Part shown: piece by piece, positions 6,240-61,557 of the stretch | Layout: each line of letters begins with the position of its first letter | Numbering within the stretch: the first letter of the stretch is position 1 | From: Botryllus schlosseri | Lineage: Eukaryota | DNA: 64,000 nucleotides | Assembly: GCA_051294905.1 (NCBI GenBank) | Contig: CM119372.1 | Coordinates: 15,750,001 to 15,814,000 of the forward strand | Direction of reading: 5' to 3' | Notes under the pieces: generated by a model | The model's input: the letters and a program-made list of their open reading frames with translations, nothing else | What the model was told of the DNA's origin: nothing | The model's database searches: none | Program-made: the position numbers and the translations under genes

Positions 6240-6321
<82 letters not shown>

Positions 6322-9112: not shown

Positions 9113-9173
9113 ATGTTGCAGCGATTCATTGTCTTGGTGGTTCTGATATCCGTGTGCGGAGCGACATATTTCC
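9113..9173 (+). CDS. Gene A exon 1: signal peptide MLQRFIVLVVLISVCGATYF
   Basis: ATG at 9113, basic residue plus hydrophobic core plus small-residue cleavage region (CGA); donor C|GTAAG, phase 1. Confidence 0.85.
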
Positions 9174-12100
9174 GTAAGATTATTGCGTGGTTGCAGATAC
9201 ATATGTCAGTACATATGTATATGAGAGTTTATTCCCTAACATCCTCTCATCGTTTCGCAGCCGTCTGCAACATACTTCAGTGTGGACCGTACGGAAGATG
9301 TCGGGCCGGCAGATGCGTATGTAGGCCGAATTACACGTTAAAGAATGGACGTTGCGTCGGTGAGTGGTCACCGGGCATGTATCATATTTTGTGATAGCAT
9401 CCCTTGATATGAAATATAACCTAGGCCGATTACACATACACTTGCGAGTAGCACCTTTTCCCATCATTTTCGCCGGAGCTGGATCGGAACCAGCTTCCTA
9501 CTCATTCTGACACGCCCGACGTACTAGGAAGTAGTGTGCTTATCCGGAGTGGATATTGTCAGGAATTCATTTAACTGGCCGGAGCTGGATCCGTCTATTC
9601 ATGATACGACCGGAGTCGGATCGGTGCCGGATTCCATTTCAAAGAATTAGGATCGTAGTCGGAGCATAGGAAAGTTGTTGATCTGCTCCTCACCGAACTA
9701 GTGTGCTATAAGTAAGTAGTTCCCGACCTTTTTATGGTGGCGACCCCAAATTTAGAATCGAAAATGTTCCGTGATCCACCTCTCAATTTCGCGTGCTGAT
9801 TGCTAAAATGGTCAGCACTTTCCCCCCAACCTACTCACGGTCCATGTGGGAAGCAGTCCACGATGTGCGCAGTAATAGCAAATATGAACTTGTCACACCG
9901 CCTATAAAGACAGTAGTATATATGTCTTTTGAAACGATTTCTAATTATGTCCATTGTTCAATCGAAACAGTCAAATTTTCTAATTTCCTGTTCGTATAGC
10001 TTCGATAAAAATACTATAAATTATTATGGTCGGAGTTCATCTGACCGGATCAAGGTTATTTCTAGAATCCGGCCTAGGAGTCGGACTAGGACTAGGGAAT
10101 TAAAAAAGCAGGTTCGGAGTCGGAATCAGTGAATTTGTTGATCCGACTTGCACTAGTATGTATCCTGCTAACACATAACACTACGCTCAGTTCCAGTTTT
10201 TCTGCTGGTAGCCATACACCAACCTTACGTTACAGCAAGTGACGCTTTATATTGTCGTTTCGAATATTCTGATACCTTGTTTACCGGGTTCGCATTCCTA
10301 AAAAAAAAAGTTTTGTCTACTTTGAAAAATGAAATAACGTATTCAAAAGTGAGTCGCCCATAGCCTACAATTGACAATCTCGTAATAGTTATTGTTATTT
10401 AATTTTCGTCTCTGTGACCACGATAGAATAGATAAACAGCCTCAATGGGGTTGCGACCTCTAAGTTCATAATCTCTGCTCTATATTCATTAGATTGCTCC
10501 ATAAAAGTTGCCTGTCGGTTAGCAATACATATTTATTCACTATTGAAATGGTGAAGGGATTACCTAGCAGCAATAGTAATGTATCGATATATGGTTTCGT
10601 TGCGATAAATTGTTTGACTGGGTTCGCCGATCTCTATATCAGGACACAATGCAGAAAACATGCGCTTCAAATCTCGAAATTAATTCGATGTTTGATTTTT
10701 CTAGTTAATGGAAAAGCATCCAGCGTCTTGCATATTTTAATTGAGATATAACAGGCAAATTCATTTGGCGTCCGCAGGAAACTTTCCAGAGATCGGCACC
10801 GGCCCGGGGATCGGCGGTTGACAACACTGCGTCACAGAAAATTAGGAATTGATTATTTGAACGCTATATTACAGGTGGGTGTCGAGGTGGACCGTGTCAA
10901 GGAGGCAAGATTTGCAAATTTGGAAAATGTGTGTGTCCGGCAGGGGAAGTTGAAGTTGACGGAAAATGCGTTGGTATGTATTTAGCCAACCTCGCAAATT
11001 AGCGATGTATATTACAGGAAAACTGGTTTTCTCGATGGACATATCTGTTGTCGACGATAAATCTTGTATTTGCGTATAGCCAGAATTGAAAATTGAGAAG
11101 AGAAGAGATATTATTAACAGCTGGTGACATAACGATGAAATAAGTCCACTAGTGCAGTGCTGTTCAACCTTTTTCGTCGCGGCACACCCTTTTAACGTGT
11201 CCTCAAAACTCGTACACCCCTGGCAACCTAATTCACCGCTTCCGTAATGATCCGCGTTTCGATTACATATATAGCATAAAGCCGCATTCCATTGGAGAGT
11301 CGTCATGGCGCATGGACGACAAATGCCTCTGCGAAATTGGCTAGTGGGATGGGAACTTTGCACCGCAGAGAGCCTTTGCGGTATTCTGTGCCATCACTGA
11401 TTTCTGGAGATATACCTCGCGCATAAAAGATTATAATTGTAGTAACAGAGCATCCCCACAGGCTTACTATATATACTTCAAAATGGAGAGTATAAATGTC
11501 AGCAGAAATGATTAGAATTAGGTTTCTCTCTCGAATGAATTTCGTCCATAATGCTGGTAGTTTCATGTCATCGCTGTCAAAAGTTTATTCATTCTTTGCC
11601 CATCTGATCAAATTAACCCAGTAGTTCTCAACCTTTTTGACCTCGCAGCACCCTTTGAAAATTGAAACATAGTTCGCGGCACACTAGAACAGCGGTTTTT
11701 AACATATTTTTACATACGGTACCTGAGAACTACCGGCTTACTTGGCAGCACTCGCAGTCGAACAGGCGGGGTCTCCGACGAAGTACTTTTACCTTGTCGA
11801 ATCACTCAATAAGGATTTACTCTGCTTCAAAGAAGAAATTACGGTTTCTTTTACATCTGCGGACATGTCACAAATATGTCTACGAATGGTATCATTTGAC
11901 ACGGAAATCATTTTCAAATCTTCCGCAGCTTTGTTCTCAAAGATTATTTTACAATGCTAATACAAGCCGAATAACTTTCTCCGCTTCCGTGCGAGTATTT
12001 GAATTTTCTGCTATTAGCCTACCTCTGCGCCAACACAACTAGCCTGTTGCGATCTCGCTGAAACTTTGGTCTGCGCTTAGAAACCATATATCATAAGATG

Positions 12101-15100
12101 TGTTTGACAATAAACTCTGCCCACTACCGCATTGTCGATGTAATTAACCATCGCATCGAACAGGCCAAGCACGATCGCCACAAACGAATACGGATGCTTA
12201 GAGGGGAGATGCGTATACAAGGATGCCAGTCACAATTTCACGCAGATCGCATAGCACGCTGACGATAGCAGAGGCAGCCACCCGCAGTTCGATTAGATCA
12301 GTGGTTCCCTAACCTTTTTCGGCTTGTGGACCCCTTGGCCGATATTTGAGCCGAAATTCCCCCCCTAAGACAAAGTTGCCCGGTTACTAAGAAGGTGCAT
12401 TTTAACGCACAGCTATTTGTTGACTGAGCAATATATACCAAAACGTATTCAGATATGCCCTAACTGTGTTGAATGCGGACCGCATTACACTTTCGTAAAG
12501 TACCGCTGACAACTTCCATATCAATTATTTGACACTAGGTGTATTGTTATCAGTGGTGGCTTTTGGTGTGGGCTAGAGGTCGACCGATATTGATTTCTAC
12601 AAGCCAATATCGATACCGATATATCGGCTAACAAGGCCGATACCGATATCATAGGCCGATATTAATATGGAAGGAGCAGAGAACAATTTCACCAAAAATA
12701 TTATTTAATAGGCAAGATGGCACTTGTACATGCCACAGAAAGCTGAACAACAAACGAGAAAACTGAAATTAAAAATAATTATTGCTTAATTGTGCACATT
12801 CGATGAAATTTGGGATAACCCAAAAAGCAAAATATGATACAGAATTGCAGATCAGTCTAGAAAAGGTAGATTGTAATGCAGGAAGCATAGTTTCTCTGCA
12901 TGCTCATGCTCACACCCAGCTAAACTCGTCCTGCAAGTGTAAATCTGTCATATATCGCCCTTTGCGTCGTCGATTTCTTGAGATTGAGAACACGGACCAT
13001 TGAATTTCCGAAATTTTTGAATTTATTTCAAATATAAAATATCGGCTGCGATATCGGCCTTCATAGGCCGATATCGATAAAGCTCTAAATGTCGGCCTCG
13101 ATAATCGGCTATGTTGATAATCGGTCGACCTCTAGTGTGGGCGGTCGCCCAGGGGTCCTTGGTCGAAAAATCCCCCATCTTTGGTTTAAGTGCCTTTTCA
13201 AGGATTATAGCAAATAAACGTGGAAATCCGTGTACCAATCAAGAATATGGTTCCGTACAGATGGGTCAATCATCAAATCTCTGCATTTGTTAGAAAAGTT
13301 CCATAACCCGATAATAAAACCTTGACGTGGTGTGTTGGCTTACTACTAATAATGTCACCCGAGAGCTTGCCAAATAAATGTGGTCTATTTGCCTGCAGCA
13401 GTTGTATCACTGCTTTATTATTTCACGCTACATGCCATACATCTTCAACATGAAGACACGAGATATATTTAACTGGGACACTTATTTTATCATTTTACAG
13501 TATATAATGAAAGAAGGCTCAGGAGCTACAACAATTCAACATTGAGGCCTGCTTCAAAACCGTAGGCCTATTACAATGTCATACACGTCAGTGACGTAAT
13601 TCCGGTCCATATGACGCATTAATTTAAGTTGGTAATAATAGAAGCGAGGGGGGTCTGGGGGTTAAGTCCCACAAAAGCTGCGATTACATACTTATGGGGC
13701 CCCCTGGAAGTCTCGCACAGGACCCCCAATAGTAGGGCCACCACTGATTGTTATCAAAAATTTATCTAAATCAAAAGAAATTAGGTCATCACTTTCCGTT
13801 GTGGTAAAATTCCTCTAAATTTGGCCTGTTTTTACTGGTCGGGTAGGTCCTGACTACAAATAAATCACCAAATTCGCTTTTGCGATGGCCTTGAGTTGAA
13901 TCAATGAATTTCGTGTTTTTCACGTTAGCAGAGATGTTGGCTTTAAAAAGGTAAACATTTTCCCCCACGGCCTTTTTGTGCTGAATCCTCTCCGACTTTT
14001 TCCTGCTTGGTAGCAATTTGGTCGAGAGGCTGTCGCGGGCCCAACGACATCGTATCACGCGCCTCACATTTTCAGGGGGTGGAAGATTATAGAGGCATAT
14101 AAATATATATCTAGCTAAGAATCCGCCAAAAGAAACCTTCTAAAACCAGTTTCATACTTTTCAGTTCTAACATAAAAGTCGAAAAATGTTGCGAACCAAG
14201 TGTGTATGTTCCGTTACAACGCTAAGGCCAAATTCCCCCTAAAAGTTTCGAAATTCCCAACAAGGGGGGAATTCCCCCCCGGTTGGGAACCACTGGATTA
14301 GATAATTCCGACAAACCGAGATAATAACCCGTTTTACCAGGTGTTATTTGTTGAGCTTTACTTCTCAATTCTCAAATTCGTCGCCGGTAACATATCGTTG
14401 CTCTCCGAGCCTACATTTCAACAGTAGTGACGGCGCGCTGACAAAAAATCGCACTGTGGACGTCTGTTGTTTGTAATTCTAATTTGTATACGTGAACATC
14501 ACTTCCAAACGAATTCATTTCTCGATGGTGATTAGGAAGACGATGAGGATTTGAAAACTACATTGCCATACAGGTGCTGCCATGTCTGCTCCTATCCGCG
14601 TTCAATCAACGCAATGGGCAAAACTTAATACCACCTTCATGGCAGTCTATTATTCGGGTAAAGCGAATTTGCAGGGACTATTGATTGCAGGGATCACTGC
14701 AATTTTAATTTGTCAAGTTTACTGTACAAACTTCACATCGAGCCCGCTTTTTATTATTCATCGTTTGCTATGGACTAGAGCGCACAATTTCAAAATTTTC
14801 GAATACATCTCTCGCGGCACACTTGCGATACGTAAATGGCACACTGGTGTGCCGGGGCACCCAGGTTGAGAACCACTGAATTAACTGGTAGGGATGGTGG
14901 AGGGGTTTCTTCGAAATCTATGGGCACAAAATTAATGATGATGAATCTTCCGGTTAATATTCACTCAGTTGCATGTTGTTATTTTTCGACCTCGCATCTG
15001 GACTGTCGGTATAGCCAAAATATATTGGAATTAATCCAACGTACCAGAACAATACTTCATTCTTGACACACACACGATTCTAGCATTGTATTTATTTTAT

Positions 15101-18100
15101 GTGGCACACCATTTTCCTCCGTGGTTCGCATTTGTATGGTGGGGCTGAGATTGCAAAGACACCATTATATTAAGAACGAATAATCCAAGTCACCCTGAGA
15201 ATTTTTTTAGGTTAAATTATAATCTCTCTAAGATTTGGGAACTAATTCGTATATTCAAATTGCATATTGACGGCCGCCAACACACGTCAAATTAATTATG
15301 GTTTCATGGCTATATGCCAGTGATCTGGAACCTGTGACTCGCGAGCCATATATGTCTCTTTTGGGTACAAGATATGGCTCTTTGAGAAATTTTTCATTCT
15401 GTACTTGATTTATCATTATTACAGCAACTTGTTGGTAAATTTCCAAGACGGCGAGAATAAATATTATTCTTGTGACTGCATAAACATGTCTTTAAGGGGT
15501 CAAGACAGAGGGGTGTACATGGTTAGGAGCTCGTTAGCGCCCTCTTTCAAAATCCTCACATTAAAATTGCTTACCAATAAACATTGAAGGGTTCACAATT
15601 TTCCTTCACTGATCCCAGGCGACATGTGAGGCACTTCCTCATTTGCCTCCCCTAACACCAAGTCACTAATGTATCACACGGTGGGTATGTACTGCTGTAG
15701 TGACTATGTTTGGCTCAACCCACCCATGTGGACAGAAAAATATGACGCACACTACACGAATCCCATATATTAGACAATTAGAGCTATCAATATGTCACTG
15801 CTGTTCAATTGTGACGTAACAGTTGATTGACATGTATGACTCTTTGGGAGTTGCAATTGAAAATATTGGTCCAATATGGCTTTTCGGTCGAAAAAGGTTC
15901 CCGACCACTGCTATATGCGTACTGACCTCTGGCCTAATCGAAATCAGTATGTGCGTGTGCATAGTGCACCGAGCAAGGCTACAACGTATAGGAAATCCTA
16001 AGTACTAATCCGGACTCGAGGTTATCGGAACACCATCCAACACGGTCCTCATCAAACTTGACTCCCGAGAACCCCAAGACTACTCCCCTGCAATTATTTG
16101 CACTAGGCTATTTATAAGCATCTCGAAAACAGTACCAATTCAAAATGTGTGCGCTGTCGCGGCGGTGTCCTCGAGGTTCATTGCAGACGGATCGCAATCT
16201 GAACATTGAACACATGATAACTTTATCATGTTCTAGTACAAAAGGAACCAATAAGTGCATTACCAGCGGTTAAATGATGAGGAGAAACATTTGCTTATGA
16301 AATCACAAAAGCAATGTAGCCTATTTTACGGCTGGCTACAGCTGATATTGACATTCTACGATTTTGCACATCCGGACAAGCTGGTCCGAAGCATAAACCA
16401 ACCTATTTATTGCGATAGCTAGCCGTTGGTCCATTTTAATGTGGAAATGGTACAACCCAGTACATCCTATCCGAGTGGTACACCCTTTAAAATTATTGTA
16501 CACCCTAGGGCAGACCTGGGCAAAGTCCGGCCCGCGTGCCAAATGCGGCCCGCGGAGCTATTCTGAGCGGCGCGCGAAAAGTCGCTTGGAATTAAAAACA
16601 TAAAACATACTTTTAAATGTTGCCGACGGGAGTAAAACCACACGCTGTATAAACATAGTCTGAAATTCGTTTACTTTGAAGCCTGTTCAGTAATATGGCG
16701 CGTGCGTAATCCATATTCAAAATAAAGCCAATGTAGCGAAGCATTCCGCAAGAATTAAAGTCACAAGAAATCACTCGCATTCCATATAGTTTAGTTCAAA
16801 TCTTTTTGTTGCCATTGTTACCCATTACATAGTCTGTGCTTGAGATTGTTATGTGATACGTTTCCAAACTCCCCATAAATCCTAAAACATGTCAATCAGT
16901 GCTCACGATTGCCATATGAGTCATACTCACCCATTAAGGATGAACAAGCATGTCAACAAAAAGCCGAATGCTAAAATTCAAAGAAGGTTAGGAGCACTAA
17001 TCAATTGTTCGTCCTTTTAGTTAGTGCTGAGCAGGCCGCCGTATTTAAGGAGTATGTTTCAAGTCGATCCTATGACAAAACACAAATAAAAACACTCGGT
17101 CATGGGAGGTCGAATTTTAGAAGAGCTGCCAACTTCGCTCAACACAAAGACTAATTCACCAAGCTGCACAGTGCATACTGCACACTGCACACTGCTAGGA
17201 AGGCAGCGATCACGGCAATAAGCTTTGTAGTATCCCAAATACATTGTAACATCCTAATAGAAAAATGTTCACGGGTGTTTTAAGAGTGTTAAAAATGTAG
17301 CACGTTCAACATATTGTTTTATGACGGCAAATTATTATTGGTGATATTTATTACTTAACCGTCACTTTCTCATTACATAATATCAACACATCCACTGTGC
17401 AGCATTTATTAACGGCGTCTTCTTTTAAATTAGAAATAGAATTAGTACACTGAAGAATATAGCTAAAATTGTTAATTCGGCCCGCAAATGTATTTTTCTG
17501 CTTCTCATTTGGCCCGTGGGGAAAAATAATTTCCCACTCCTGCCCTATAGGGTGTATAATACACTCTGTTGACTGCTTTTCATTTCTTCTTACGCCATTA
17601 TTGACCGTGGTGCAAAGCGCCCAATTTTTCTTTTATTAAATAACAACAGTATCAACAAAACCAGGTTGGTTGAGGAGCCCTGCGATGGTGGTTATATATA
17701 TATCTTACTTTTCATAGTATGTTTAAATATACCAAACGCCGTTTCCGGGCGACCCGTGGAATATCCACATCGATATGTTTTGTTTTATTTCAAGAATTCC
17801 TATATTTGCTGTTTAAGCTTGATCGATTTCCAGATATATGACGCATGCCTATGATCAGGAGAGGATGGATGTTTGCCAAGCAACTTCAGGAGTTATGAGT
17901 TACATGCATACAACACCAGCGTGCTATTGCACTACATTTTAAAGTCGATTCGGAATATTCATAAATTTAAGCATCGTTACACTCATGAGCAGGCCGTGTT
18001 ATTTTTGGCATATGCCAAAACTGCCAAAAATAACTTATTTTTGGCATTTTTCGATTTTTATTTTTGGCAGTTTTGGCATCGTCCTCTAAATAGATAGTTT

Positions 18101-21100
18101 CAGCCTTGAATTAGTCACAAAAACGCTTTATTCGGGCTACTTTGTCAAAAGACACCACAAAATGTGCAGCATCCACGTATAATCAGTGCCAACAAACAAT
18201 AAGAAGAAAAAACCTAACGATTTTATAGGTTAATAATATCAAACGAAACCACAAAATGTGCAGTATCCATGGGAATCGGTGCCAATAAGCAAAAAAAAAA
18301 AGAAAGAAAAGCCTAACAAACACACTCAACAGCTGATTGTTACAGCTGTTGAGTAGACTTAAATCGTTTGCATTGTAACAGTGCTTCCAAACTCAGGTCA
18401 GCTAAGTTTCTCCTAAATTCATTTCTCGCCCAGCGAATCTGGGAAATATCGGCTTCAACAGTAGCCGTTTAGGGAAAGAATGTTGCCAGTCATCCACAAA
18501 AGGTTTTCAGAGCTTCAAAATCTTTGGAGGGCCGAACCGCCTTCCATGCATCATGAAAAGAGATCACTTCGCCAGTGCCATCGATCTCATCGCGGAAAGA
18601 ATTTTCTTCCCGATCCTTTTCTAGGAGTTTCCTGTGTTGTCTCTCAACACATTCTATTTAGTAGCCCGACTATCATTTCTCCTTCAGTCTACCGATATAT
18701 TTTCGGAGGACTTTTGGCACTTCAGGAGGCTTTAATATTACCAACTCGCATGGAAGAGTCCTGGGAAGGTTAGCTTGTTTAAGAACATTGACGCAACAAG
18801 ACTGTCTGGCAAAACGAGACTATGCAGCTCAGAAATAGCCAGACAGTTTGTTGCGTCACAATGTTCCATTCGATCACAATGCAAAAATCGTGGTTGATTT
18901 TGGGGGTTCCAGTTCCATGAGCAGAATATAATTTATATTTTAATAATCAGTACTGCGGCAGCTTCTCATTGATACCCGTTTTATCAAATTTACGCTCGAC
19001 AAGCCGGTCAAAAATGGTCGTAAAATTGCATTTGGACAAATGGAAAGTATGACGCAAACCAAATGCAGTCAGCCGGTCAATCTCGCTGTGCCCACACCAT
19101 TTAGGACACCATGCTTTCACCCCTAATGGGTGGGTTGGACCCAGATTAAGAAACCTGCCTTTCACAAACGCTCTTCTCGCTTGTAACGCGGTCCTGTTAA
19201 CACAATACCATGAACGAAATACACTATTTGGCAGGCCGTGTTATTTTTGGCATATGCCAAAAATTGCTTATTTTTGGCATTTTCAAATTTTTATTTTTGG
19301 CAGTTTTGGCATCTGGCTCTTGAAATGCCAAAAATAACACGGTCTGCTCATGAGTGAGGCTGTATGAGATGCCCTATTTCGTACTTCGTAATTTTTGCCG
19401 AGAGATTACTCCAAAAGGTTGTCTATTATTATTGAAAGTCGTAACAGCTTAGTCGGATAAATATACAGTATACAGATAAGTAAGTCAGCATTAAAACATA
19501 GCATATGCTTTTGGTTGAAAGTCGCCCAGTCATAGTCTTTATTTTAAGATATGATGAAAGCAACTATATGATTCACAATTCAAAATTCAGATGGTGATTC
19601 CCAGAGGTGGTCAAAGTAGTCAAGAAAGCTACTCAAGTAGAAGTAGAAGTAGCGAAGAAAAAAAATCTACTCAAGTACAAGTAGAAGTACTTCTTTCATA
19701 AGCAACCTAAAACTACTTGAAGTAGAAGTAGAATTGACTGACTTTAAATCTACTCAAGTAAGTAAGTAAGTAAGTAAGTAGTTGTGAAAACGATCGTAAT
19801 TCGTTGACATGGATTATCAAAAGGTGCAAACTGAGCTATGCGAAAGGTGTAGAGCTTCATTCTTATGGATGCATAGATTGCATACCAGGAGGTATCCAAT
19901 TTTCGAAAGCATAAGCATTCGTCCGCATCATGGGATGGAAACGATAGTATTGATATGGAAATGCGATACTAATCCTCTTTTTAACCGAACATGGGGCACC
20001 CTCTCCCATGTTATTAGGCCTGTAGTTTAGACGAAGAGCAATACGGAGAAGGTGTATGGGATACGGTGTAAACACTTTGCGCGATAAGTAAACATTAATA
20101 AGAAGTATGGTGGATCGTAAAATGCCATATGTGTAGTTTTATTTCCGAAAATTAAAGGCATTACCACACTTGCTTTTATACTTCAACCTCTACGTTATCC
20201 AAAAAAAGAACTGATATTAATTAGAACTCAAAGTATATGATACTAGGTATAGTAAGTGAAATATAAATACTACTTCTAAAAGCGGAACATTCATTTCGTG
20301 TCTTCAGTCCAGAAAGTTTCGAAGGTTGGTGAGCTGAAACAGCTCTTAAACTAAAAAAAAGTCAGAGTCCACTTTTCCAGATTAGGGCACGACATGGACT
20401 GCTAGATAACGATATGATAAGTAAATGCTAGATTGCGTAACATCACTTTCAGACGTTATGATGAAGTGGCGAGATTGCGCAGTGGTATAATCCGCGGCTG
20501 TAACACCAATGGGTTGCGGGTTCGAATCCGACCGAGGTCGACTTCAGAAATCCTATACCTAAGTCATGGTGGTTTATCTAGGCTCCTCTTCATCCCCTCA
20601 TCCGCGTAAGCGGTATCTTACAAAAAGCCTATAAGTGGGCCGTGCTATAAGTCGGCAGTTATGGAATAAAGAGAGAGTCTTTAGAGTCTTTAGAGAGAGA
20701 GAGTCTTTATTTTCATCGAACCAAAATACATAACAAACGGCAGTGATGGTGGTACAGAAAATATGCGTGCACAGTATTCGGTATTAGATATGAATGATCG
20801 AGAAGACCGTGAAGGTCATCTAGTCTGATCACACCAGCATCAAACAGGTACACTTGACTCTGAACAGTCTGGATGTAAAGAAATGTTTAGTTAAAGGAAA
20901 ATAGAAAAAAATTAAACAATGGTGGCAAATGATCAATGAAGCAATGTCTGGGCGAGGTAGGGCAACAGTGTTAGTGTAACGACAAGAGGTGATCAAGTAG
21001 GGCTTTTTTGAATCTATTATAAGGCAATTCACGAATATGTGGTGGTAATGCATTCCAGATGATAGGTCCCGAGTAGTCGATAGATCTCTTAGTTAGGTTG

Positions 21101-25238: not shown

Positions 25239-25364
25239 AAAGGCTTGGTATGTGACGTTAATAGCAATGTTAAACATAACGCATTGCAAAAGAAATTTGT
25301 TTTTCGGATATCTCGATGAACTGATTCCTGACTACGACATTGCCTGTTTTTCGTTGAAATACCT

Positions 25365-25370
25365 AATAAA
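25365..25370 (+). promoter_or_regulatory. Candidate polyadenylation signal of gene A
   Basis: First AATAAA, about 130 nt after the stop codon. Confidence 0.55.
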
Positions 25371-25438
25371 TTGATTCATGTCGCATACGCGGTCACATCT
25401 GTATGTATTTTTGAGATAGTGATTGTGCTTGACTACGG

Positions 25439-25831
25439 TAGGGTTACCATATTTAGGGCATCTGAAAAGAGGACACTTTTTCAAAATTTTCATGCTTACA
25501 ATACTGGAGTAAAATCCTGAAAAAAATGGTGAATGTAATGGTCGGTTAACTAAAAAGAAAAATGGTCAACTTTCTGGCTCAACTCCCGAATTACCCATTT
25601 CTACGAGATTTTCCGTTGGTTGACTAAAAAAGGGTCATTTTTTCTGGCTCAATTCCCGAAAAGCAGGTCGGACCGTTACTTGGCCGCAGATTTCGTGTAT
25701 CTCAGTCCAATTTCCACGAAGATTTACCCAAAATTCTTAAAAATGAGGACAAGTTTTCGAAAAACAGGACATTTAGGCGTCCTCCGAGGACACTTTAAAA
25801 AAGTCAATAAAGAGGACGTATGGTAATCCGA
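25439..25831. mobile_element. MITE with GAGGAC repeats, copy 1
   Basis: TIR tagggttaccata...tatggtaatccga; TSD GACTACGG. Confidence 0.85.
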
Positions 25832-27341: not shown

Positions 27342-27888
27342 CAGTTGTTTTTAAGCTTTTTTGACACGCCCCGGTTGATGATGGTGAAAGATGTTGCGCG
27401 CGCCCTATCGCCATATCAATAAATATTAAAAATAGCAATTAGAATGTTTGCTATCTCAGTGCATTGTTTGATGTCATGGAAGGTGACACGTAGAACATAC
27501 ATATTTTAGCTATTTTGGTGCCTAAAACGTGTTATTGCCCTACTTCAGCCTATAGGAGCCTATGGCTCAAACGTACCTGACCATAAACTAAATCAAAAAC
27601 CAATGGCACAGCTACACGCATTCGCCAGTTACACTTCATTGATTCATTGATTCATTGATTAGTCCTAGGTTTGGTATCGCGAAACATCTAGCATCAGAGT
27701 ATGGAGTGTGGCGTGTATGACGCAGATATGACATTTAAAATCGAAATATAATTAGGATTATTGCCATCGTTGAAAGTTGGAAATTTCGACACTAATTTAA
27801 CTCATTCCTTGTCCAAGAAACACCATTTCTTTCAGGTGGCGTCACGCTCCCTCTCAAGGGGTCGCGCTCCTCAGATTAAAAACCAGCG
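27342..27888. mobile_element. Degenerate hAT-type MITE
   Basis: Ends cagttgtttttaa...ttaaaaaccagcg; flanks GCCTAGTT/GTCTAGTT. Confidence 0.5.
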
Positions 27889-53800: not shown

Positions 53801-56800
53801 ACCACCCGGAACGCGAGCGCTCAATAATTAAGCTGAATTGCCAATCACATAGAACAACACAAATTCTTGAATTACAGATCCATGCGCTCTGATACTCTGC
53901 CCCGAAGGAACTATTTGCAAGAATGGAGAATGTGTTGGTAAGTGCTTTATGGCATATATTACATTTATGGATGATAAGGAAATGTCTGCACTATGCATAG
54001 AGTATAGAACAATAGACTATAGTAGTGTGCATCATATTCATGTGACTGCATACAAGCAGAATGATACCGATGTCTGATATGGAGCTGATAAAGTATCGAA
54101 AAAGGAGAGTTGGAGAGAGAGAAAGAAAATGAGAGAGACTTTATTTTTGTCTGCACCATCGAGGTGTGTTGGCGATAGAGAGGAACCAACAGAGAAGATG
54201 AGAGAGTTGAATCAAAACAAGGATGCCATGCTCAGCATATTCTGATCTTGTAGCTTTGCACGATCTATGAGCACGAGCAGTAAACCCTTGGCAGATTTTT
54301 TAGTAGCCTACTGCAACGTCCATTCGTCGTGTAAAGTACAGAATAGTCCGTTGATGATCTACAAGTTATAATATAATAATATAATATTATAGCATGATCA
54401 ATACAGGAAGGAAATTACATACGGTACACGCACTCTTTTCAGGCATATGTCCAGAACCCAAAGTATTCAAAGGCTGCTCAACAAGCTGCCCCAAAACTTG
54501 TGAAAATAGATTCGACCCACCGCGACCGTGCCCGGCTGTCTGTAGACCCGGAGTGAAATGCGTCTGCCCAGATGGATACGTGGAGAGGAGCAGCACGGAT
54601 TCAACTTGTGTGAAAGAATCCAGATGCCCAGGTATAAACTCTCACCAGCGATCATAGTGACACGCAAAGGGGAGTTCTGCTATTACTGACATAACATGCG
54701 TTGGTAAGACTATTATATATATATTGATTCATGCATTTAAGTATGAACAGAATGAAAAAAAGACTTCTCGATTGTCTGGTGACATCACCTTATACATCAA
54801 AGATGGAATTACCAAAATGTATTTTTCGCGGGAAATGTCCATCTGATATCAGTTTTGCGGGAAGAGATCCTTCGAGAGCGTCTATTATTAAACTAATGTG
54901 ATGCTCGCATGGCACAAAACTACTAAACTTTTGATTGTTATATGATAAAGTGTTACTGGTTGGAGTTTTTATTATTTTTTCTTCACTTATTAATTCACTC
55001 ACTCTAATTTTCAGAAAGATGCCCCAAACCTAAAGTTTACGATTCCTGTCCCACAAACTGCCCTGCCACCTGCGAAAATATAAACGATCCACCTCGTATA
55101 TGTGCAACTGTTTGTCGACCGGGCGTAACATGCGTTTGTCCAAGAGGATATGTAGAGAAAAGTAGCACCGATTCCACATGCGTCAAACGCTCTAAATGCC
55201 GAAAAGGTGGGCAATTTATAGAACAATAATTCCAGTGCTTTTAGATAGAGCGCAGAAGTTAAATCTACAGTCATACGGCCGCATGCAGCCAGAGAATGCA
55301 TTCTACGTCTCTCTATGCCAGTGGTTCTCAAAATTGGGGCGTGAAAGCATCTTGAGGGGGTGCGAAGCCGACGAAGAGGAGTCACGTTTCTTGAACTCGG
55401 AATGAGAAAAAATTGGGCTGAAACCTCCATATTTCAACAGCGGCAATAACCCAAATTATATTACGATATAAATGTCATAGTGGCATCATAGCCATCCATA
55501 CTGCGATGCTAGATTTTTACTGATACCGGACCTTGCACCGACTAGAAGATATCTCTGAATCAAGAGTAGTTGGTCAACGTGTGTAGCTGTTAACTGACTC
55601 TTGTGTCTGTCTCCGCGTAGTGCGTAGAACGACACAAAGCTATATAGGGAGAAATAATATATTTCCTTGTAAGGTCATATCAAACGCCATTTGAAATATG
55701 ACTTTTGCATCCAAGAACAAGGATTTCAATCGAAGTGGCTTAAAAGGTCGAAGTAACCCATGCGAGTATATTCAATTGGAAATTTTTTATAGAATGCCAC
55801 TCTATAATAGAGTCGCATCTTATGGCAGCCCAAAAGTACTCAATTGAATTATTCTCTGGCCGAACACCTGCGACATGGATTTGTCCCGCGTAGAATTTCC
55901 AAGTCTAAATGGCGTCCGACACGGGCCATCAGTTTTCGATTCAGCTTATAATCAGGTACATTTGAACATTTGACAAAATATTAAACTGAAAAAATTTTTC
56001 GCGCTTGGGGCTAGTTACCTCCATCTCTTAGATATTGCTCTGTTTATAGTCAGAATTTCACATATGAAAAGTCTCTCAACAGTCATAACTAGGGCAAGTT
56101 TTTGTTGCACTAAAATCGGGTGGAAGTTGCATTTAATTTAGAAAAAAGTTGCAGTAAAAAGTTGCATTCATAATTTTTGTTGAATAGGTAGGATGTGAGA
56201 TACTCGAAAGGTTCTGTTGCATAACTTACTGTTCCTGCAGAGCTGTCAAATTCGTTTCTTTGTCATTTCACTGAAATTATATTTTTCCCGGCACACATCA
56301 GCAGGAAAATTACGCAATGCAGGAATAATTTCAACCCAAAAAGTCAAACAGCTTATCGATAACCCATCCTCCTAAAACAAATCAAGTAACTCATCCCAAA
56401 CCTCCTAAGTCTGCAAACCTGACCCAAGGAGATCAAGGAGAAATCATTCTTGGCGACTTTAACAAATCAATACCCCGAATAGGGGACCCAGTGAAAATGC
56501 AATTTTCAGCGGTCTCGCCTGGGCATCCGTGAAATGGGGATCTCAAATTTAGACGACAGAATTAGTAAAGTGATCTATTTACATATTGATCGGACACGGA
56601 CGTGCTTTGGCAGGAGTAATTGAACTTCTTGCTTGCAAGCCATTGTGTCATAGATAACACAGTGAGATGCAGCTAACCCATCATAGCTCTTTGTTGTGCA
56701 AATCAAAGAGAATAGAACCATGTTAGAACTAGTTTATAGCATTTTTAAATCACTCCTTTTAATTTTGGCGCAATATTCGATGAAAGTTGCAGTAAAAGTG

Positions 56801-59800
56801 GGTTTGAAAAATAGAGAAAACTTGCACTATTACATCCCTTGAAACATCTAAAAACATAATTCTACATAGATTCTGAGTATCTAGGAAGCTGTTGGAAGCT
56901 GTATAAACAGTTGTAAGAGTTGCAAAAACATGTCCTAGTCATAACTTTCCATGCCCTTAAACTATGCGCTGGGATTGCAAACTTTCTAGTCGCTCCTTAG
57001 TTATGATATGACGATGGGGGGGGGGGGGCGGGCGAATCATTTTAGTATTATCAAGGGGAGCGTATTTGACAAAAAGTTTGAGAACAACTGCTCTATGCGA
57101 TTCAAAATTAGTTTAGTTCACAATCAAGCCTATACATATTCACGACATAGTAAATATTTGTGAGTCAAGCGTCCGTCGTCTTCAGTAATTTTGTTTTTCT
57201 GTTGATGGAAAGATGGAATGTACGATATACATAATTTCCAATAAAAATATTTTATCTGGTATCAGTATTGCGAAAAAATATGTTGTGATGTGCGGATGCC
57301 CCAAATCTACGAAACGTGACATTGTTATGGAATGATTTTCACGGATTCATTGTTTTATATATATTTTTATCTATTTCTTCATTTATTTATTTATTCATTT
57401 ATTTTCACAGAGCTAAGTAACAATATTCCTTATTTCAGTTCCAGTTTGCCAACAACCAAAGGTTACGGGACCGTGCAAGGCCCGCATACCGAAATTCTTT
57501 TTCAACGCACGGACCGGGAAGTGCGAAAAATTCTATTACGGTGGCTGCCAAGGAAATGAAAATAAATTTGACAGTCGCAGAGAATGCGAAGCGGCATGTA
57601 TGTGATAATGTAGTATTAAAGAGCTAGTGGAGTATAATGTATTCATTGAATGTACGCCTCTAGCACCCATCATCCATTGCAGGGACGGGCAGCATGCGGC
57701 CCGCGGGATTTTAAGCTGCCCGCACAGAGTCTCCGGTCTTCCATGATAATGTGGCCCGTGGCCGAAGAAAGGTGGCCACGAAACTGCTTATTTTGTTAGG
57801 GTTTTCATTAGGGTTGTTCAGATTTGAAAAATGTAAGGAAACTACGATGCTTGTGACCCAAATGATGGTTTAGTACATAAAAGCACTTTAATTAGCACTT
57901 TTGGTCATCTTCATCGCGATCTTCTATATCAGAAAAGCCCCCAAAGATCCACGGGGCGATTCTCCTTACTATTGGATCTGTAATGTTGACCATGTCACCG
58001 GTTTATAGCTTTTGTGAAGTTCGCATTTCCTATCGTTAGGTTATGATACAATATACATTACTTCGTTCGTTTTACCATATGTTAAGTTATTATGGCGACA
58101 CAATGACGACCCATTCAGTAACAACCGACAATAAACTCACTTCAGGCCGGCCCAGCTTCCTATAGTTGTCTTTACATCGGTAAAATATCATCCATCTTGT
58201 CGCCTTCTGTTAGCGGTGCGAGTCCTTCCACAAATTATTTGCTGCCCGACTAAAAGGTTTTTTGCTTTCATTTTCTATTGTTTTGCGGTGTACCTTTATG
58301 AAGTGTGTTACACAGTAATGCAGTATATGAGCAGTATTTGTTGAATCGTTCGGTATCGAAATACCGTACAATACAGCTAACATACGGGTAACTTCTATGC
58401 GTATTATGCGATGAGTGTGACTTACTGCAGAATATCGTCATTGAAATTCATATATTACGCATCCGAACGGTATTTTTATTGCGCTGTCGGCCTTTAAGTA
58501 TGATCATGAAACAAATATTAAACGATTATCTGCTTAATTCGGACAATGCGGATACTCCGCTCAATTCGGTCAAAATCCTGAGCGAAGTCGAAGTGTCAGA
58601 AATATGCGGCTCGACTGTACTGTATACTGACTCCGTGTCAATGAAATTAGTAGGAATACAGAATTCAAAGTCAACGCTGCCTATGGGAAAATTTCGAGTT
58701 CAATCCATTGTTATTGATTGCCATTTTAATACGCGTATAAAAATATGGCGTTTGACATATATAGCTTAAAAGTCACTCGCAAAAGTGACAATTTTGGGAA
58801 AGTTACTACCTCGATAATATATCTCCTTATATTCATTTGCGATTGTATTTCGACATCCATTGCGATCTTTCTACTTGCATCAAAATCCATCAAACTTTCC
58901 ATAAACACTGCTACTAATACTTATATATAGGCAATCTCTGCAAGCTTGACAAGGATGCTGGCCCGTGTGACGGCGATTATCGACGATATTACTACAACGC
59001 GGAAACCGGTGACTGCGAGGAATTTTCGTACGGAGGTTGTCCGGGTAACGCAAACCGATTCACCACCCTCAGAGAATGCAGAAAAGAATGTGCAGGTGTG
59101 AATTCTTATCAGTGTTTTCTCATTTTATGATAAATCATCGCGGTGATTTTGATAATTTGCTAGAACTGGGGGTGGATGGGAGTTTCCCCACATATACAGC
59201 ATTATGTGCATCAACATTGACATTATACCTAACAAATCATCAATATCCCTTTTCGTATATTAGTTTTATTTAAACCTGCACCTTGCAATCGCAGATCCTT
59301 GCATTCTGAAGTTTTGTCCGATCGGAAGGATCTGCAAAATGGGACAATGCGTCAGTAAGTGAAAGAGTTTATTATTAATATTATTATTATGGACAGATGC
59401 CTGAGAAATATCATTCCGAAAACTCACCCACTGATATCGTCCGTAATCCAACCAGCATGGTCCAGTTTTACCGTAATGTGAAAATACCATCCGATAATGT
59501 TTGGTATTTCCATCACCTAAAATGATTATTTTTACGAACGCACCGACTAGTCACAATTCACGACAGTCAAGACACTTATCATTTGCCGACATCAAGCTAT
59601 TATCGAAGGTCGGTGGCATATAAAGAGAATACCTATATTTTAATTGGCCACAATTTAAATTATATAAGAGCGTGTGGCTACTGAGGTATCAAATGCATGA
59701 TTGCACAATGCACATATTTTCCGACCCCACGAAATTGATGCTTTTGGGCTTTAGGACCACGGTTTCTGATGGATGGTAATCATATAGATCACAAGACAGG

Positions 59801-61557
59801 TGAAGTTGAACTTCAAACAGGTCAATGCAGATTATGTTGAGTGCGGTAGATACAGAGGTGGTTAAAGTAGTCAAGAAAGCTACTCAAGTAGAAGTAAAAG
59901 TAGCGACGAAAAAAAGCGACTCAAGTACGATTAGAAGTACTTCATTCATAAGCAACCTAAAACTACGTGAAGTATAGGTATAATTGACTAACTTCAAATC
60001 TACTCAAGTAAGTAAATAGTTGGGAAAGCGATCGTAATTCGTTCGCATGGACTATCAAAAGCTGCAGAGCTTGATTCATATTGATGTATACCAGGAGGTA
60101 TCCAATTTTCGACAACATAAGCATTCGTCCGCATCATCGGATGAAAATGATGGTATGGTGTTGTGAAAACGATCGTAATTCGTTCGCAGGGATTGTCAAA
60201 AGGTGCAAATTGAGCTATTCGAAAGGTGCCGAGCTTGATTCATATTGATGCATACCAGGAGGTATTCAATCTTCGACAACCTAAGCATTCGTCCGCATCA
60301 TGGGATAAAAATGATTGTATTGATATGGAAATGCGATACTAATCCTCTGTTTACTTGAACAGCCCGTTTTAAACAATGTCATGGTATGATGCCGTCCCCC
60401 GTATTATGAGAATACAGTAGTCTGTCAAAGAGCAATACGAAGAAGTTGTATCGGATACGGTGTAAACACTTTGCGCGATTAGTAAACGTAAATATAAAAT
60501 ATAGTGGATCGTGAAAATGCTATGTTGTGTAACTTCATTTCCGGAAATTCATGGCACTACATTCGCTTTTATACTTCAACATGTAGGCTATATTCTCCAG
60601 ACAAAAGAACTGATACTATTCAGAACTCAAAGTATGATACTGAGAATTGAAAGAGAACTATATACTTCTCAAAGTGGAAAATGTATTTTATGTTTTAGTC
60701 TAGAAAGTTTCGACGGTGATCTGCTAAAACAGGTCTAAATCTAAGGAAAAGTCAGAGTCCACTTTTACAGATTAGTACACGCCATGGACTGCTAGCTTAC
60801 GATATGATAAATAAATGCCAGATTGCGAAACATCAGTTTCAAAGGTCATGATGAGCCATATATACTGTGATGAAATAATTCCTATGGGCGACAATGCGGC
60901 GTGAACGCGCAACCCGCTATCCAAATTATATTCACCAATACTTGAAATCATATTGATCACTCCATATCCACTGTGCGCGAAGCGTGATGAAAATTCTGGG
61001 CTTTACTCAATATTTATGAAAATTAAATGTTGATACTCCTTGAAAACAGCCCCGAAATACCTCAGGCTGTCTTACGGATTTGAGAATTTAACTACTTCTA
61101 CTTGACAAACTGAAAATAGCGAAAATTAAGTAAGTAGATCACAAAATATTATGTAGTAGAAATAGAATTAGCGTGAAATTACATCTACTGGAGTAAGTAC
61201 CCATGTAGCGGAAAACTACTTGAGTAGGCTACTTCAAAAAAGAAGAAGTACTTCGTTGCTGACTACCTCTAGGTAGATAAGAAACAATGCGATACAATTG
61301 ACAGTAGGGTGGTTCTCGACAATCTATTGCTCGATCACCCTCTTTGGCTCATAGTTATAGATATAGGATTATACCATGAATACTGATATGTAAAATGAGA
61401 CAATTTACTGAAATCAGGGATGCTCTCACCTGAACAAAACTTACTTTCAGAACGGTGCGGTGGCGGATACTGTGGAGATGACGGCGTATGTGTCCATAAC
61501 AAATGTATTTGCTTGCGACGACCTGGATATTCTGAGGATTGTACCCTGTACTATTGA
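29822..61557 (+). CDS. Gene B: secreted multidomain protease-inhibitor-like protein (SP, 3x EGF-like, [TIL-TIL-Kunitz-Kunitz-4Cys] x2, EGF-like), 678 aa, 15 exons
   Basis: Exons 29822-29894, 35913-36005, 36075-36209, 36656-36751, 36814-36996, 43404-43595, 44144-44302, 44427-44600, 53878-53937, 54443-54631, 55015-55206, 57439-57597, 58931-59095, 59295-59354, 61451-61557. Joined length 2037 nt, open frame, all GT-AG phase 1. Confidence 0.78.
31224..32800. mobile_element. Internally deleted Buster/Charlie-type hAT transposon
   Basis: TIR caggggtcggcaacc...ggttgccgacccttg; TSD ATGTATTG; carries a transposase pseudogene. Confidence 0.9.
31480..32335 (-). pseudogene. Buster/Charlie-family hAT transposase pseudogene
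   Basis: Minus-strand pieces ALCAKTTNLNSVLATMMKTVNMI, ELRNEIATFL, WVSHLAFLVHLTSHLNKLNLQLQGK, FGSTYACEQ*F*TMKFTKSKLRSRISDVH, with stops and frameshifts. Confidence 0.85.
33186..34291. mobile_element. MITE with TCCGGA repeats, copy 1
   Basis: TIR tagggttaccata...tatggcaacccta; TSD ATATAAGC. Confidence 0.88.
34665..35043. mobile_element. MITE with TCGCCCCC tandem motifs, inserted in a partial copy of the 41591-42532 family
   Basis: TIR cagtggttcccaac...gttgggaaccactg; TSD TATTAGAG. Confidence 0.88.
35913..36005 (+). CDS. Gene B exon 2: EGF-like DLCGGIVCPLGQLCRDDRCVCFGVVDDYGNC
   Basis: Acceptor ttatttag, donor G|GTTTG, 93 nt, 6 Cys; not in the ORF track. Confidence 0.75.
36075..36209 (+). CDS. 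Gene B exon 3: Pro/Thr linker plus EGF-like (VLPTIGPPITVTIFPPPCYPKCSRDRICKNGECVCNSGREVYGKC)
   Basis: Acceptor tttttag, donor G|GTAAG, 135 nt. Confidence 0.82.
36656..36751 (+). CDS. Gene B exon 4: EGF-like VPTCPIYCPPGQYCKNGKCVCRKGNLHNGKCV
   Basis: Acceptor tttcag (in-frame alternative AG 6 nt upstream), donor G|GTAAT, 96 nt. Confidence 0.85.
36814..36996 (+). CDS. Gene B exon 5: TIL domain, loop CTKEC
   Basis: Acceptor cccacag, donor A|GTAAGT, 183 nt, 10 Cys. Confidence 0.88.
38489..39430. mobile_element. TCCGGA-family MITE, copy 2 (inverted relative to 33186-34291)
   Basis: TSD CTATAGTT; reverse-complement homology. Confidence 0.87.
38872..39110 (+). mobile_element. Second tRNA-derived SINE family (boundaries approximate)
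   Basis: A box TAGCGTAATGG, B box GGTTCGATTCC; absent from the paralogous host 33186-34291. Confidence 0.65.
40716..42952. mobile_element. AAGTAG-family element, copy B (contains 41591-42532)
   Basis: Homology to 19602-21655; AAAATAAT flanks both ends. Confidence 0.85.
41591..42532. mobile_element. TIR element with GTGAAC repeats
   Basis: TIR tagggatggtgt...acaccatcccta; direct repeat CCATATATTC on both sides. Confidence 0.85.
43404..43595 (+). CDS. Gene B exon 6: TIL domain, loop CATVC
   Basis: Acceptor tttccag, donor G|GTGGG, 192 nt, 10 Cys. Confidence 0.88.
44144..44302 (+). CDS. Gene B exon 7: Kunitz/BPTI domain 1 (P1 = Glu, GPCEALM)
   Basis: ICELPKDSGPCEALMPKFFFNAKTGRCQRFNYGGCLGNRNRFDTRRECEAR; Kunitz F-x-YGGC-x-GN-x-N-x-F signature; last Cys split T|GT. 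Confidence 0.92.
44427..44600 (+). CDS. Gene B exon 8: Kunitz domain 2 (P1 = Glu, GPCEAAI)
   Basis: CSICKLDKDPGPCEAAIPSYYYNRYTKRCDKFYYGGCEGNANRFSRLSACRDQCEEPR; acceptor ctgtag, donor G|GTATG. Confidence 0.92.
45600..45911 (-). mobile_element. Penelope-like retroelement 3' remnant (C-terminal part of a GIY-YIG endonuclease)
   Basis: SAISKHLLDNP...FRVVGRGRSHFHLCALESTFIKIHQPRLCQQKEF matches the SAI-x-HL...LE-x2-I-x4-P-x-L pattern of Penelope endonucleases. Confidence 0.7.
46330..46492 (+). pseudogene. hAT-like transposase C-terminal remnant
   Basis: AQLQCCQPTTAAVERSFTVIGNLLSKDKNVLPENVGKYL carries the P-x-T/S-A-x-VERSF motif; (GACTCC)n end region at 46850-47038. Confidence 0.6.
47211..48427. 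mobile_element. hAT-type element with GTGGGCCA repeats
   Basis: Ends caggggttctca...tgagaacccatg; TSD CGCTAGGG. Confidence 0.83.
48431..48754. mobile_element. GAGGAC-family MITE, copy 2
   Basis: tagggtaaccata...tatggtaacctta; homology to 25439-25831. Confidence 0.82.
49365..50250. mobile_element. hAT-type element with GAGCCA repeats
   Basis: TIR cagtggtcgggaacc...ggttcccgaccactg; flanks GCATAGAC/GCATAAAC; partial inverted copy near 15318-15590. Confidence 0.82.
51011..51433. mobile_element. GAGGAC-family MITE, copy 3 (inverted), inserted in a SINE 3' fragment (to about 51545)
   Basis: Flanks TGTCTTAC/CGTCTTAC; downstream sequence matches the SINE tail (ggtgtaaatgacca...gtcgacaaacacca). Confidence 0.82.
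51662..52323. mobile_element. Foldback (palindromic) element with about 315-bp inverted arms
   Basis: Arms 51662-51976 and 52008-52323 around a 31-nt spacer; TSD CTGCGCAT. Confidence 0.9.
53878..53937 (+). CDS. Gene B exon 9: 4-Cys mini-module DPCALILCPEGTICKNGECV
   Basis: Acceptor ttacag, donor G|GTAAG, 60 nt. Confidence 0.8.
54443..54631 (+). CDS. Gene B exon 10: TIL domain, loop CPAVC
   Basis: Acceptor cttttcag, donor G|GTATA, 189 nt, 10 Cys. Confidence 0.88.
55015..55206 (+). CDS. Gene B exon 11: TIL domain, loop CATVC (near copy of exon 6)
   Basis: Acceptor ttttcag, donor G|GTGGG, 192 nt; RCPKPKVYDSCPTNCPATCENINDPPRICATVCRPGVTCVCPRGYVEKSSTDSTCVKRSKCRK. Confidence 0.88.
55319..57090. 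mobile_element. hAT-type element containing 56090-56937
   Basis: TIR cagtggttctcaaa...tttgagaacaactg; TSD CTCTATGC. Confidence 0.85.
56090..56937. mobile_element. tagggcaagtttt-family element, uninterrupted copy
   Basis: TSD GTCATAAC; homology to 6535-8366. Confidence 0.87.
57439..57597 (+). CDS. Gene B exon 12: Kunitz domain 3 (P1 = Lys, TGPCKARIP)
   Basis: VPVCQQPKVTGPCKARIPKFFFNARTGKCEKFYYGGCQGNENKFDSRRECEAA; acceptor tttcag; last Cys split T|GC; not in the ORF track. Confidence 0.92.
58931..59095 (+). CDS. Gene B exon 13: Kunitz domain 4 (P1 = Asp, GPCDGDY)
   Basis: CNLCKLDKDAGPCDGDYRRYYYNAETGDCEEFSYGGCPGNANRFTTLRECRKECA; acceptor tatag, donor G|GTGTG. Confidence 0.9.
59295..59354 (+). 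CDS. Gene B exon 14: 4-Cys mini-module DPCILKFCPIGRICKMGQCV
   Basis: Acceptor cgcag, donor A|GTAAGT, 60 nt; paralog of exon 9. Confidence 0.82.
59853..61271. mobile_element. AAGTAG-family element, copy C (internal tandem duplication at about 60020-60320)
   Basis: TSD GGTAGATA; homology to copies A and B. Confidence 0.88.
61451..61557 (+). CDS. Gene B terminal exon: EGF-like KRCGGGYCGDDGVCVHNKCICLRRPGYSEDCTLYY*
   Basis: Acceptor ctttcag, 6 Cys, TGA at 61555-61557. Confidence 0.82.

Follow-up and report, generated by a model that had tools for sequence, protein, structure and literature searches.

The 64,000-nucleotide window analysed here, positions 15,750,001 to 15,814,000 of contig CM119372.1 in the Botryllus schlosseri assembly GCA_051294905.1 (495.5 Mb, 219 contigs; C2:15,750,001-15,814,000 in our numbering), contains two adjacent multi-exon genes, gene 1 and gene 2, whose predicted products are chains of small cysteine-rich modules. 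The window has a G+C content of 41% and, as in animal genomes generally, no long open reading frames (ORFs). Scans for Cys-rich open segments and for the EGF cysteine pattern found about twenty small Cys modules, on the + strand only; inspection of the splice sites found each of them flanked by AG and GT in an identical relative frame.

Joined by script, the 8 exons of gene 1 (+ strand, 9113-25238) give a protein of 312 amino acids with 51 cysteines, and the 15 exons of gene 2 (+ strand, 29822-61557), which begins 4.6 kb further on, give 676 amino acids with 97 cysteines. Gene 1 encodes a putative signal peptide (SP), four EGF-like modules, a trypsin-inhibitor-like (TIL) module, a further EGF-like module and a second TIL, followed by the stop codon: SP-EGFlike4-TIL-EGFlike-TIL. 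Gene 2 encodes SP-EGFlike3-TIL2-KU2-mini-TIL2-KU2-mini-EGFlike and a stop, where KU denotes a Kunitz module and mini a short module with four cysteines. All introns of the two models (21/21) have GT-AG borders and all lie in phase 1. Each internal exon holds one Cys module; none of the 23 exons contains a stop or a frameshift, and both ORFs are intact. The start codons are followed by leaders that appear hydrophobic and signal-like by eye, at 9113-9173 in gene 1 (phase-1 donor gtaaga) and at 29822-29894 in gene 2 (73 nt, likewise with a phase-1 donor). An AATAAA signal stands 127 nt past the stop of gene 1 (at 25365) and 110 nt past that of gene 2 (at 61667). In Kunitz exons 7 and 12 of gene 2, the codon of the sixth cysteine is split, and is completed only by splicing to the next exon.

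An earlier, sequence-only reading of the window had proposed that 23 exons splice into two complete ORFs of 312 and 678 codons, with one Cys module per exon and phase-1 cassettes throughout, and that the products are secreted. Our independent reconstruction reproduces the first length exactly; the second is obtained from the upstream AG of a tandem NAGNAG-type acceptor at 57439/57445 (…tttcag/ttccag/) before Kunitz exon 12, the downstream AG giving 676 residues. The cassette structure is as proposed, and the leaders of both genes agree with secretion. The Pfam E-values (down to 1e-21), the split-codon Kunitz cysteines and the ratios of nonsynonymous to synonymous substitution (dN/dS) of 0.07-0.26 between duplicate exons argue for genes that are real beyond chance. 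On the genomic sequence, genes 1 and 2 are confirmed as real, adjacent and separately started, their expression being predicted. Both proteins have Tyr-Tyr immediately before the stop (window 25224-25238 and 61543-61557). The predicted products of Styela clava LOC120343085 end in ..CEY, and a C-terminal tyrosine may be a feature that they have in common with genes 1 and 2.

Domain identity of the modules

All six complete TIL exons match the Pfam TIL family (PF01826, MEROPS I8) at 34.1-40.4 bits, above the curated cut-off of 24.5. They are exons 6 (23927-24115, 35.3 bits) and 8 (25036-25238, 34.1 bits, with the C-terminal ..YY and a TGA stop) of gene 1, and exons 5 (36814-36996, 34.6 bits), 6 (43404-43595, 38.4 bits), 10 (54443-54631, 36.4 bits) and 11 (55015-55206, 40.4 bits) of gene 2. 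In their alignment the ten TIL cysteines are invariant. The reactive loop Cys5-x-P1-P1'-Cys6 holds three residues, a length equal to that in BSTI, AMCI and LL-TIL. When a TIL profile was compared with the PDB, the four matches at E<=0.01 were BSTI, AMCI, LL-TIL and an LL-TIL mutant, all of them stand-alone inhibitors; no chain of von Willebrand factor (vWF) or mucins matched at that threshold.

The four Kunitz exons of gene 2, namely 7 (44144-44302, 77.1 bits), 8 (44427-44600, 68.2 bits), 12 (57445-57597, 75.8 bits) and 13 (58931-59095, 71.7 bits), all match Pfam Kunitz/BPTI (PF00014, MEROPS I2) at 68.2-77.1 bits, with a curated cut-off of 21. Six conserved cysteines are present in each of them, counting the split codon in exons 7 and 12. 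In the PDB, exon 12 matches SmCI, boophilin, TFPI and bikunin, and also BPTI. What the sequence-only reading assigned to TIL and Kunitz hence holds in every exon of the two types.

Neither model contains a VWD, C8, TSP1, Ig or ZP module, as judged by Pfam for the scanned exons and by the Cys-rich scans of the window. Three named families were considered and rejected. Papilin membership finds no TSP1, papilin cassette or Ig/PLAC in the Pfam-scanned exons or the Cys-rich scans of the window. The zonadhesin, vWF or gel-forming mucin type would come with VWD and C8, which are missing here, and the TIL profile missed the vWF and mucin chains of the PDB at E<=0.01. The modules that define WFIKKN are absent.

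The remaining modules are defined by their cysteines. Nine of them follow the pattern C-x4-C-x5-C-x4-C-x-C-x8-10-C, which is EGF spacing. In gene 1 these are exons 2 (9261-9359, six cysteines, assigned by pattern), 3 (10875-10973), 4 (21794-21886, 3' of a 10.8-kb intron), 5 (22008-22106, 62% identical in amino acids to exon 3) and 7 (24191-24286); in gene 2, exons 2 (35913-36005), 3 (36075-36209, where the module follows a Pro-rich 'TIGPP' linker), 4 (36656-36751) and 15 (61451-61557, with the C-terminal ..YY and the stop). The two minis, exons 9 (53878-53937) and 14 (59295-59354) of gene 2, are 60-nt exons of 20 codons whose four cysteines correspond to the first four, that is the first two-thirds, of the EGF-like pattern. 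They were located by pattern; a tblastn comparison of intron 8 with introns 13/14 for conserved minis returned noise only.

The Pfam scan covered eight EGF-like and mini segments, the exons at 9261-9359, 36075-36209 and 59295-59354 lying outside it. Four of the eight gave sub-threshold matches to EB, EGF_2 or EGF_Teneurin (E 7e-5 to 1e-3). Exon 3 of gene 1 reached 21.2 bits with EB (cut-off 24.3) and exon 4 19.8 bits with EGF_2 (cut-off 22.1). Closest to threshold was exon 7, with 23.2 bits for EGF_Teneurin (cut-off 24.3) and 21.8 for EGF_2 (cut-off 22.1); exon 2 of gene 2 had no Pfam match. An AlphaFold model of one EGF-like module, built on an 11-row alignment, has two hairpins and a mean local confidence (pLDDT) of 83.6. 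The 13 Foldseek rows obtained with it are mostly EGF modules, the best having a template-modelling (TM) score of 0.64 over 29 columns, and none reaches E<=0.001. An antistasin identity was also considered and rejected: the profile match to the N-subdomain of hirustasin has an E-value of only 0.007, and hirustasin ranks 11th among the 13 Foldseek rows, with a root-mean-square deviation of 5.3. We therefore call these modules EGF-like rather than proven EGF. The sequence-only reading had named them EGF outright; the spacing is that of EGF, and the Pfam scores are all below threshold.

Duplication history and ascidian relatives

Ten pairs of duplicated exons were tested, and in all ten the proportion of nonsynonymous differences (pN) lies well below that of synonymous ones (pS), with dN/dS between 0.07 and 0.26. 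TIL exons 6 and 11 of gene 2 are 90% identical in amino acids (pN 0.048, pS 0.455, dN/dS 0.07); for Kunitz exons 7 and 12 the ratio is 0.13. The similarity of the duplicated units at the DNA level ends about 20 nt to either side of the exons, and the introns have diverged. The low ratios indicate strong purifying selection on the duplicated exons.

Gene 2 has a paralog in the same genome, on the - strand at C2:22,779,696-22,786,528, 7 Mb from the window. It reads leader-EGF3-TIL-KU-mini, with the exon order and the phase-1 boundaries of gene 2. Its leader exon is 73 nt long and 63% identical to that of gene 2, and it contains the sole other genome match of gene 2 exon 3 ('TIGPP' plus EGF-like), also at 63% identity. 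The TIL of the paralog is 80% identical to exon 5, and its Kunitz module is 75% identical to exon 8 and likewise has Glu at P1. No counterpart of exon 15 was found in the 13.7 kb past its mini exon, nor elsewhere in the genome. Among at least 65 TIL and at least 32 Kunitz matches scored in the genome, gene 2 and this paralog are the only places where a distance of no more than a few kb separates TIL from Kunitz exons. One TIL and two Kunitz exon matches fall within 50 kb at C8:8,814,249-8,864,136 (- strand); they could be a further mixed gene or mere neighbouring genes.

The duplication history was read from identity matrices only. The TIL of exon 5, so close to that of the paralog, is only 43-47% identical to those of exons 6, 10 and 11, and these three are 53-63% identical to the TILs of gene 1. 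A common core would be leader-EGF3-TIL-KU-mini, as the paralog has it. Gene 2 would then have gained a second type of TIL (exons 6, 10 and 11) and a second type of Kunitz module, and a TIL-KU-KU-mini block appears to have been duplicated within it, pairing exons 6/11, 7/12, 8/13 and 9/14. The shorthand (TIL2-KU2-mini)2, proposed from the sequence-only reading, renders the order of the modules correctly, but it hides this history, exon 5 being so unlike exons 6, 10 and 11.

Inside gene 1, a pseudo-exon at 23550-23760 is a decayed tandem copy of exon 6, 79.5% identical to it over 220 nt and situated 313 nt upstream. Its TIL score is 22.4 bits, below the cut-off. The acceptor AG has become AA, the codon of the second cysteine is TGA and 9 nt are deleted, while the donor is intact. 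Such a copy implies that exon birth and death are continuing here.

A profile made from the six TIL exons was searched against 1.84 billion representative proteins and gave 728 matches at E<=0.001, the best 150 of which were classified with hidden Markov models (HMMs) built from the modules of the window. These 150 comprise 135 proteins with TIL only, 9 with TIL and Kunitz and 6 with EGF-like modules and TIL; none of the best 150 combines all three. The nine TIL and Kunitz proteins are all from spiders, with automatic names such as papilin, zonadhesin-like and Kunitz-type inhibitor, and Pfam found both domains in the three that were checked. Five of the six EGF-like/TIL proteins are uncharacterised predictions from S. 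clava, whose source names are zonadhesin-like, tenascin-like, SCO-spondin-like, cell death abnormality protein 1-like and uncharacterized. The sixth, from a transcript-like contig of another species, has 620 amino acids and at most 59% identity; it is the one match, among two candidates, of a word-index search of longer proteins with TIL exon 11. That search found no near relatives of exon 11, which is weak evidence of their absence. With Kunitz exon 8 its sole results were a pair of TFPI-2 proteins from fish (58% identity) and a third protein, again weak evidence of absence. In a 265-amino-acid protein from a JGI source, a Kunitz module 49% identical to exon 8 also shows Glu at P1 (GPCEA) and precedes a Cys-rich tail.

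Genes 1 and 2 have in common with S. clava proteins a putative signal peptide and three or four EGF-like modules followed by TIL, with E-values of 1e-44 for gene 2 and 1e-52 for gene 1, and they resemble these proteins more than they do other TIL proteins. Minis of 20 amino acids with four cysteines, as in gene 2, also occur among the S. clava proteins. Four of the five S. clava loci begin SP-EGFlike4-TIL, which supports the joining of gene 1 across its 10.8-kb intron. By these alignments the two genes are members of a family of EGF-like/TIL mosaics that is specific to ascidians and unnamed in the literature. The predicted isoforms of S. clava LOC120343085 (454, 475, 495, 516 and 537 amino acids) differ by whole four-Cys minis of 20-21 amino acids; the mini cassette is apparently a recurrent, alternatively included unit of this family. 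Within it, Kunitz exons would have been gained by gene 2 and its one paralog. Our literature search found no account joining ascidian, Kunitz, EGF-like and trypsin inhibitor-like, nor one of this family or of the order TIL, Kunitz and EGF-like. Excerpts of a study of Botryllus allorejection expressed sequence tags (PMC2527998) list one Kunitz (TFPI-2-like) and one I8 sequence.

The sequence-only reading had assigned this architecture to no named family and had thought it possibly lineage-specific and new. The first point agrees with the classified matches, in which the order EGF-like, TIL and Kunitz does not occur. The second stands insofar as the family is ascidian, but the genes are not orphans, having relatives at five or more S. 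clava loci under generic names and one paralog in their own genome. As to novelty, the full order was not found in the best 150 of the 728 matches; mosaics of TIL and Kunitz were, however, already predicted in spiders (9 of those 150), one of them as TIL2-KU2.

Predicted inhibitory heads and competing explanations

The P1 residue of the TIL heads was taken as the second residue after Cys5, by analogy with the reactive site of AMCI, which we take to be Met30-Gln31; this numbering agrees with the PDB alignment. It is Lys and Ala in gene 1 (exons 6 and 8), and Lys, Thr, Ala and Thr in gene 2 (exons 5, 6, 10 and 11). In the Kunitz heads it is Glu, Glu, Lys and Asp (exons 7, 8, 12 and 13). A basic P1 is thus present in three of the ten heads, and among the Kunitz modules in exon 12 only, whose loop, GPCKA, is that of TFPI and other inhibitors. 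In silkworm TIL inhibitors, according to passages of PMC10004685, Thr, Ala or Gly at P1 goes with subtilisin or elastase and Lys or Arg with trypsin. Inhibitors of compound and mixed type form a recognised class, as described in the sections of PMC3278429 that deal with them.

Genes 1 and 2 probably encode extracellular canonical serine-protease inhibitors of mixed type, secretion and inhibition both being read from sequence. The two products would be secreted, disulfide-rich 'compound' proteins made from symmetric phase-1 cassette exons, and their heads would act as canonical (substrate-like, tight-binding) inhibitors of differing specificity. The three heads with Lys at P1 would face trypsin-like targets, and the four TIL heads with Ala or Thr elastase- or subtilisin-like ones. 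The three acidic Kunitz heads, non-canonical yet conserved, may or may not have a target. EGF-like modules and minis could serve as spacers or matrix-binding parts, and in the lineage of gene 2 the Kunitz exons would have been taken up before exon and block duplication.

Several points weigh against this assignment. In three of the four Kunitz heads P1 is acidic (Glu or Asp), and inhibition of trypsin-like enzymes is not expected of them; the sequence-only reading had counted ten potential inhibitory heads, and the ten TIL and Kunitz modules are there, but the count overstates their inhibitory promise. The TIL and Kunitz folds are found, too, in modules that serve structure or binding and not inhibition, in vWF, mucins and collagen VI. 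None of the eight EGF-like and mini segments scanned reaches the Pfam cut-off of an EGF family, and the best PDB sequence match of the EGF-like profile is the weak one to hirustasin. Finally, no protein of the 188 compared exceeds 46% identity with either product.

It is possible, if rather unlikely, that the two proteins are mainly structural, as components of extracellular matrix, egg coat, tunic or adhesive, with protease inhibition absent or incidental. EGF-like, TIL and Kunitz modules would then be rigid disulfide-knotted building blocks or binding modules. EGF-like modules and minis indeed make up five of the seven non-leader exons of gene 1 and six of the fourteen of gene 2, the acidic P1 of three Kunitz heads fits such a role, and the S. 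clava relatives have matrix-type names (zonadhesin-like, tenascin-like, SCO-spondin-like), if only by automatic naming. Adhesive footprint proteins of sea stars, in the part of PMC9382459 concerned with them, include TIL and EGF domains. Against this stand the absence of VWD, C8, TSP1, Ig and ZP modules from both models, and PDB matches of the TIL profile that are in four of four cases stand-alone inhibitors instead of vWF or mucin TILs. Two of the TIL heads and one of the Kunitz heads retain a P1 Lys within a loop of canonical form, and proteins of 312 and 676 residues are small beside typical matrix TIL proteins.

A more specific inhibitory role is improbable in our judgement: a tunicate-specific humoral anti-protease system, in which cassette splicing mixes the heads and the acidic-P1 Kunitz modules are directed at Glu/Asp-specific serine proteases. 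The symmetry of all cassette exons (phase 1-1) would allow combinatorial alternative splicing of heads. The targets of the acidic heads could be glutamyl endopeptidases of microbes or host enzymes resembling granzyme B; to our knowledge, natural Kunitz domains with Glu/Asp specificity have hardly been described.

We consider it quite doubtful that the genes are not expressed as modelled, being silent or decaying copies or belonging to other exon sets, for example with a split at the 10.8-kb intron of gene 1 or the 9.3-kb intron of gene 2. The searched collections hold no identical or near-identical protein, the decayed copy within gene 1 points to ongoing birth and death of exons, and symmetric exons permit skipping, as the predicted isoforms of LOC120343085, differing by whole minis, illustrate. 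Decay is nevertheless hard to reconcile with 23 exons free of stops and frameshifts and with the low dN/dS of the duplicates, and the paralog keeps the exon structure, leader exon included. A split of gene 1 would disagree with the start found at four of five S. clava loci, and a pattern scan of 25239-36000 (the long introns of gene 1 lie outside it) revealed no further exon that combines a leader-like sequence with a phase-1 donor. That the Kunitz heads are channel blockers or toxins, as are some venom Kunitz peptides, is most improbable: it has for it the names of database neighbours only (a spider TIL2-KU2 protein labelled 'Kunitz-type U19-barytoxin' and sea-anemone Kunitz entries in the PDB), whereas sea squirts are not known as venomous and the heads sit inside long multi-module proteins.

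If the genes are expressed, the locus shows mixed-type protease inhibitors being put together by exon shuffling in a chordate relative: Kunitz exons placed in an EGF-like/TIL scaffold, duplicated singly and as a block, with a decaying copy left behind. Its ten natural heads with varied P1 residues, including three acidic-P1 Kunitz modules apparently under purifying selection, would be material for studies of specificity. Multi-domain Cys-rich secreted proteins are common in animal genomes, and the locus opens no long-standing question.

Nested genes were considered and rejected, as none of 13 picked long antisense or intronic ORFs has a Pfam match above cut-off. Open frames on the - strand run antisense over TIL exons at 43340-43927 (195 amino acids), 55011-55433 (140 amino acids) and 36623-37015 (130 amino acids). 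None of them matches Pfam, and the Cys-rich codon composition most likely accounts for them. A repeat of about 1.4-2 kb (79-83% identity) is common to intron 5 (40717-42944) and intron 14 (59852-61263) of gene 2, and is probably a mobile element because the two sites do not correspond within the duplicated block. Upstream of gene 1 (2465-2727, 3378-3448, 6748-6842 and 7536-7605) there are an (AGTCA)n microsatellite of about 37 copies and four short arrays with units of 33 and 37 bp; these also contain AGTCAAGTCA, which suggests that they are copies of a single repeat family. A (GA)n array lies at window 6240-6339.

Comparison with known systems

The EGF-like/TIL side of the architecture is best compared with S. 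clava. LOC120347030, 'zonadhesin-like' (XP_077974245/XP_077974246), shows 28.9% identity to gene 2 in an alignment of 689 columns that starts at the signal peptide (E 1e-44). The two have in common a TIGPP-type linker, the stretch ACPSNCPPTCE in the first TIL, modules of the mini and EGF-like types and a C-terminus rich in cysteine. Unlike gene 2, LOC120347030 has five consecutive TILs, no Kunitz module (by the window Kunitz HMM and by Pfam, in which TIL alone exceeds the cut-off) and more EGF-like modules at its C-terminus. The best match of gene 1 is LOC120341751 (XP_077966975 / XP_039266246 'cell death abnormality protein 1-like'), with 38% identity over 363 columns and an E-value of about 1e-52. 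It shows the same alternation of EGF-like modules and TIL and the SP-EGFlike4-TIL start, but is three times longer (944-958 amino acids, six TILs), and the identity is too low for orthology.

On the inhibitor side, the spider protein GIY77807.1 of Caerostris extrusa (257 amino acids) contains the exact TIL2-KU2 unit found within gene 2, as Pfam also shows. Other secreted spider mosaics with TIL and Kunitz heads are KAG8181902.1 of Oedothorax gibbosus and the 'papilin' XP_042897680.1 of Parasteatoda tepidariorum. Over the common modules, these mosaics are 33-42% identical to gene 2. They differ from it in having no EGF-like or mini modules, belong to a distant phylum and are predicted, uncharacterised proteins; they were probably assembled independently.

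Gene 2 also resembles C. elegans MEC-1 and MEC-9, compared by description only, in joining EGF/EB-type modules with Kunitz domains, with the difference that these proteins have no TIL. MEC-1 and MEC-9 are EGF and Kunitz matrix proteins with a structural role in the touch-receptor matrix, and in Pfam, EB modules accompany Kunitz domains in nematodes. SmCI (4bd9), boophilin (2ody), TFPI and bikunin, which match Kunitz exon 12 with E-values, summed over domains, of 1e-39 to 2e-22, have tandem Kunitz heads with differing P1 as gene 2 does, but consist of Kunitz modules with no TIL or EGF-like ones. Among compound or mixed-type canonical inhibitors, in the MEROPS usage, silkworm BmSPI56 unites Kunitz, antistasin, WAP and TSR, as given in the relevant section of PMC3278429, a combination of families unlike that of gene 2. 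Within the matches inspected, the full architecture of gene 2 thus appears to be new, while its ingredients are known: the ascidian EGF-like/TIL family, the TIL and Kunitz mosaics of spiders, and mixed-type inhibitors.

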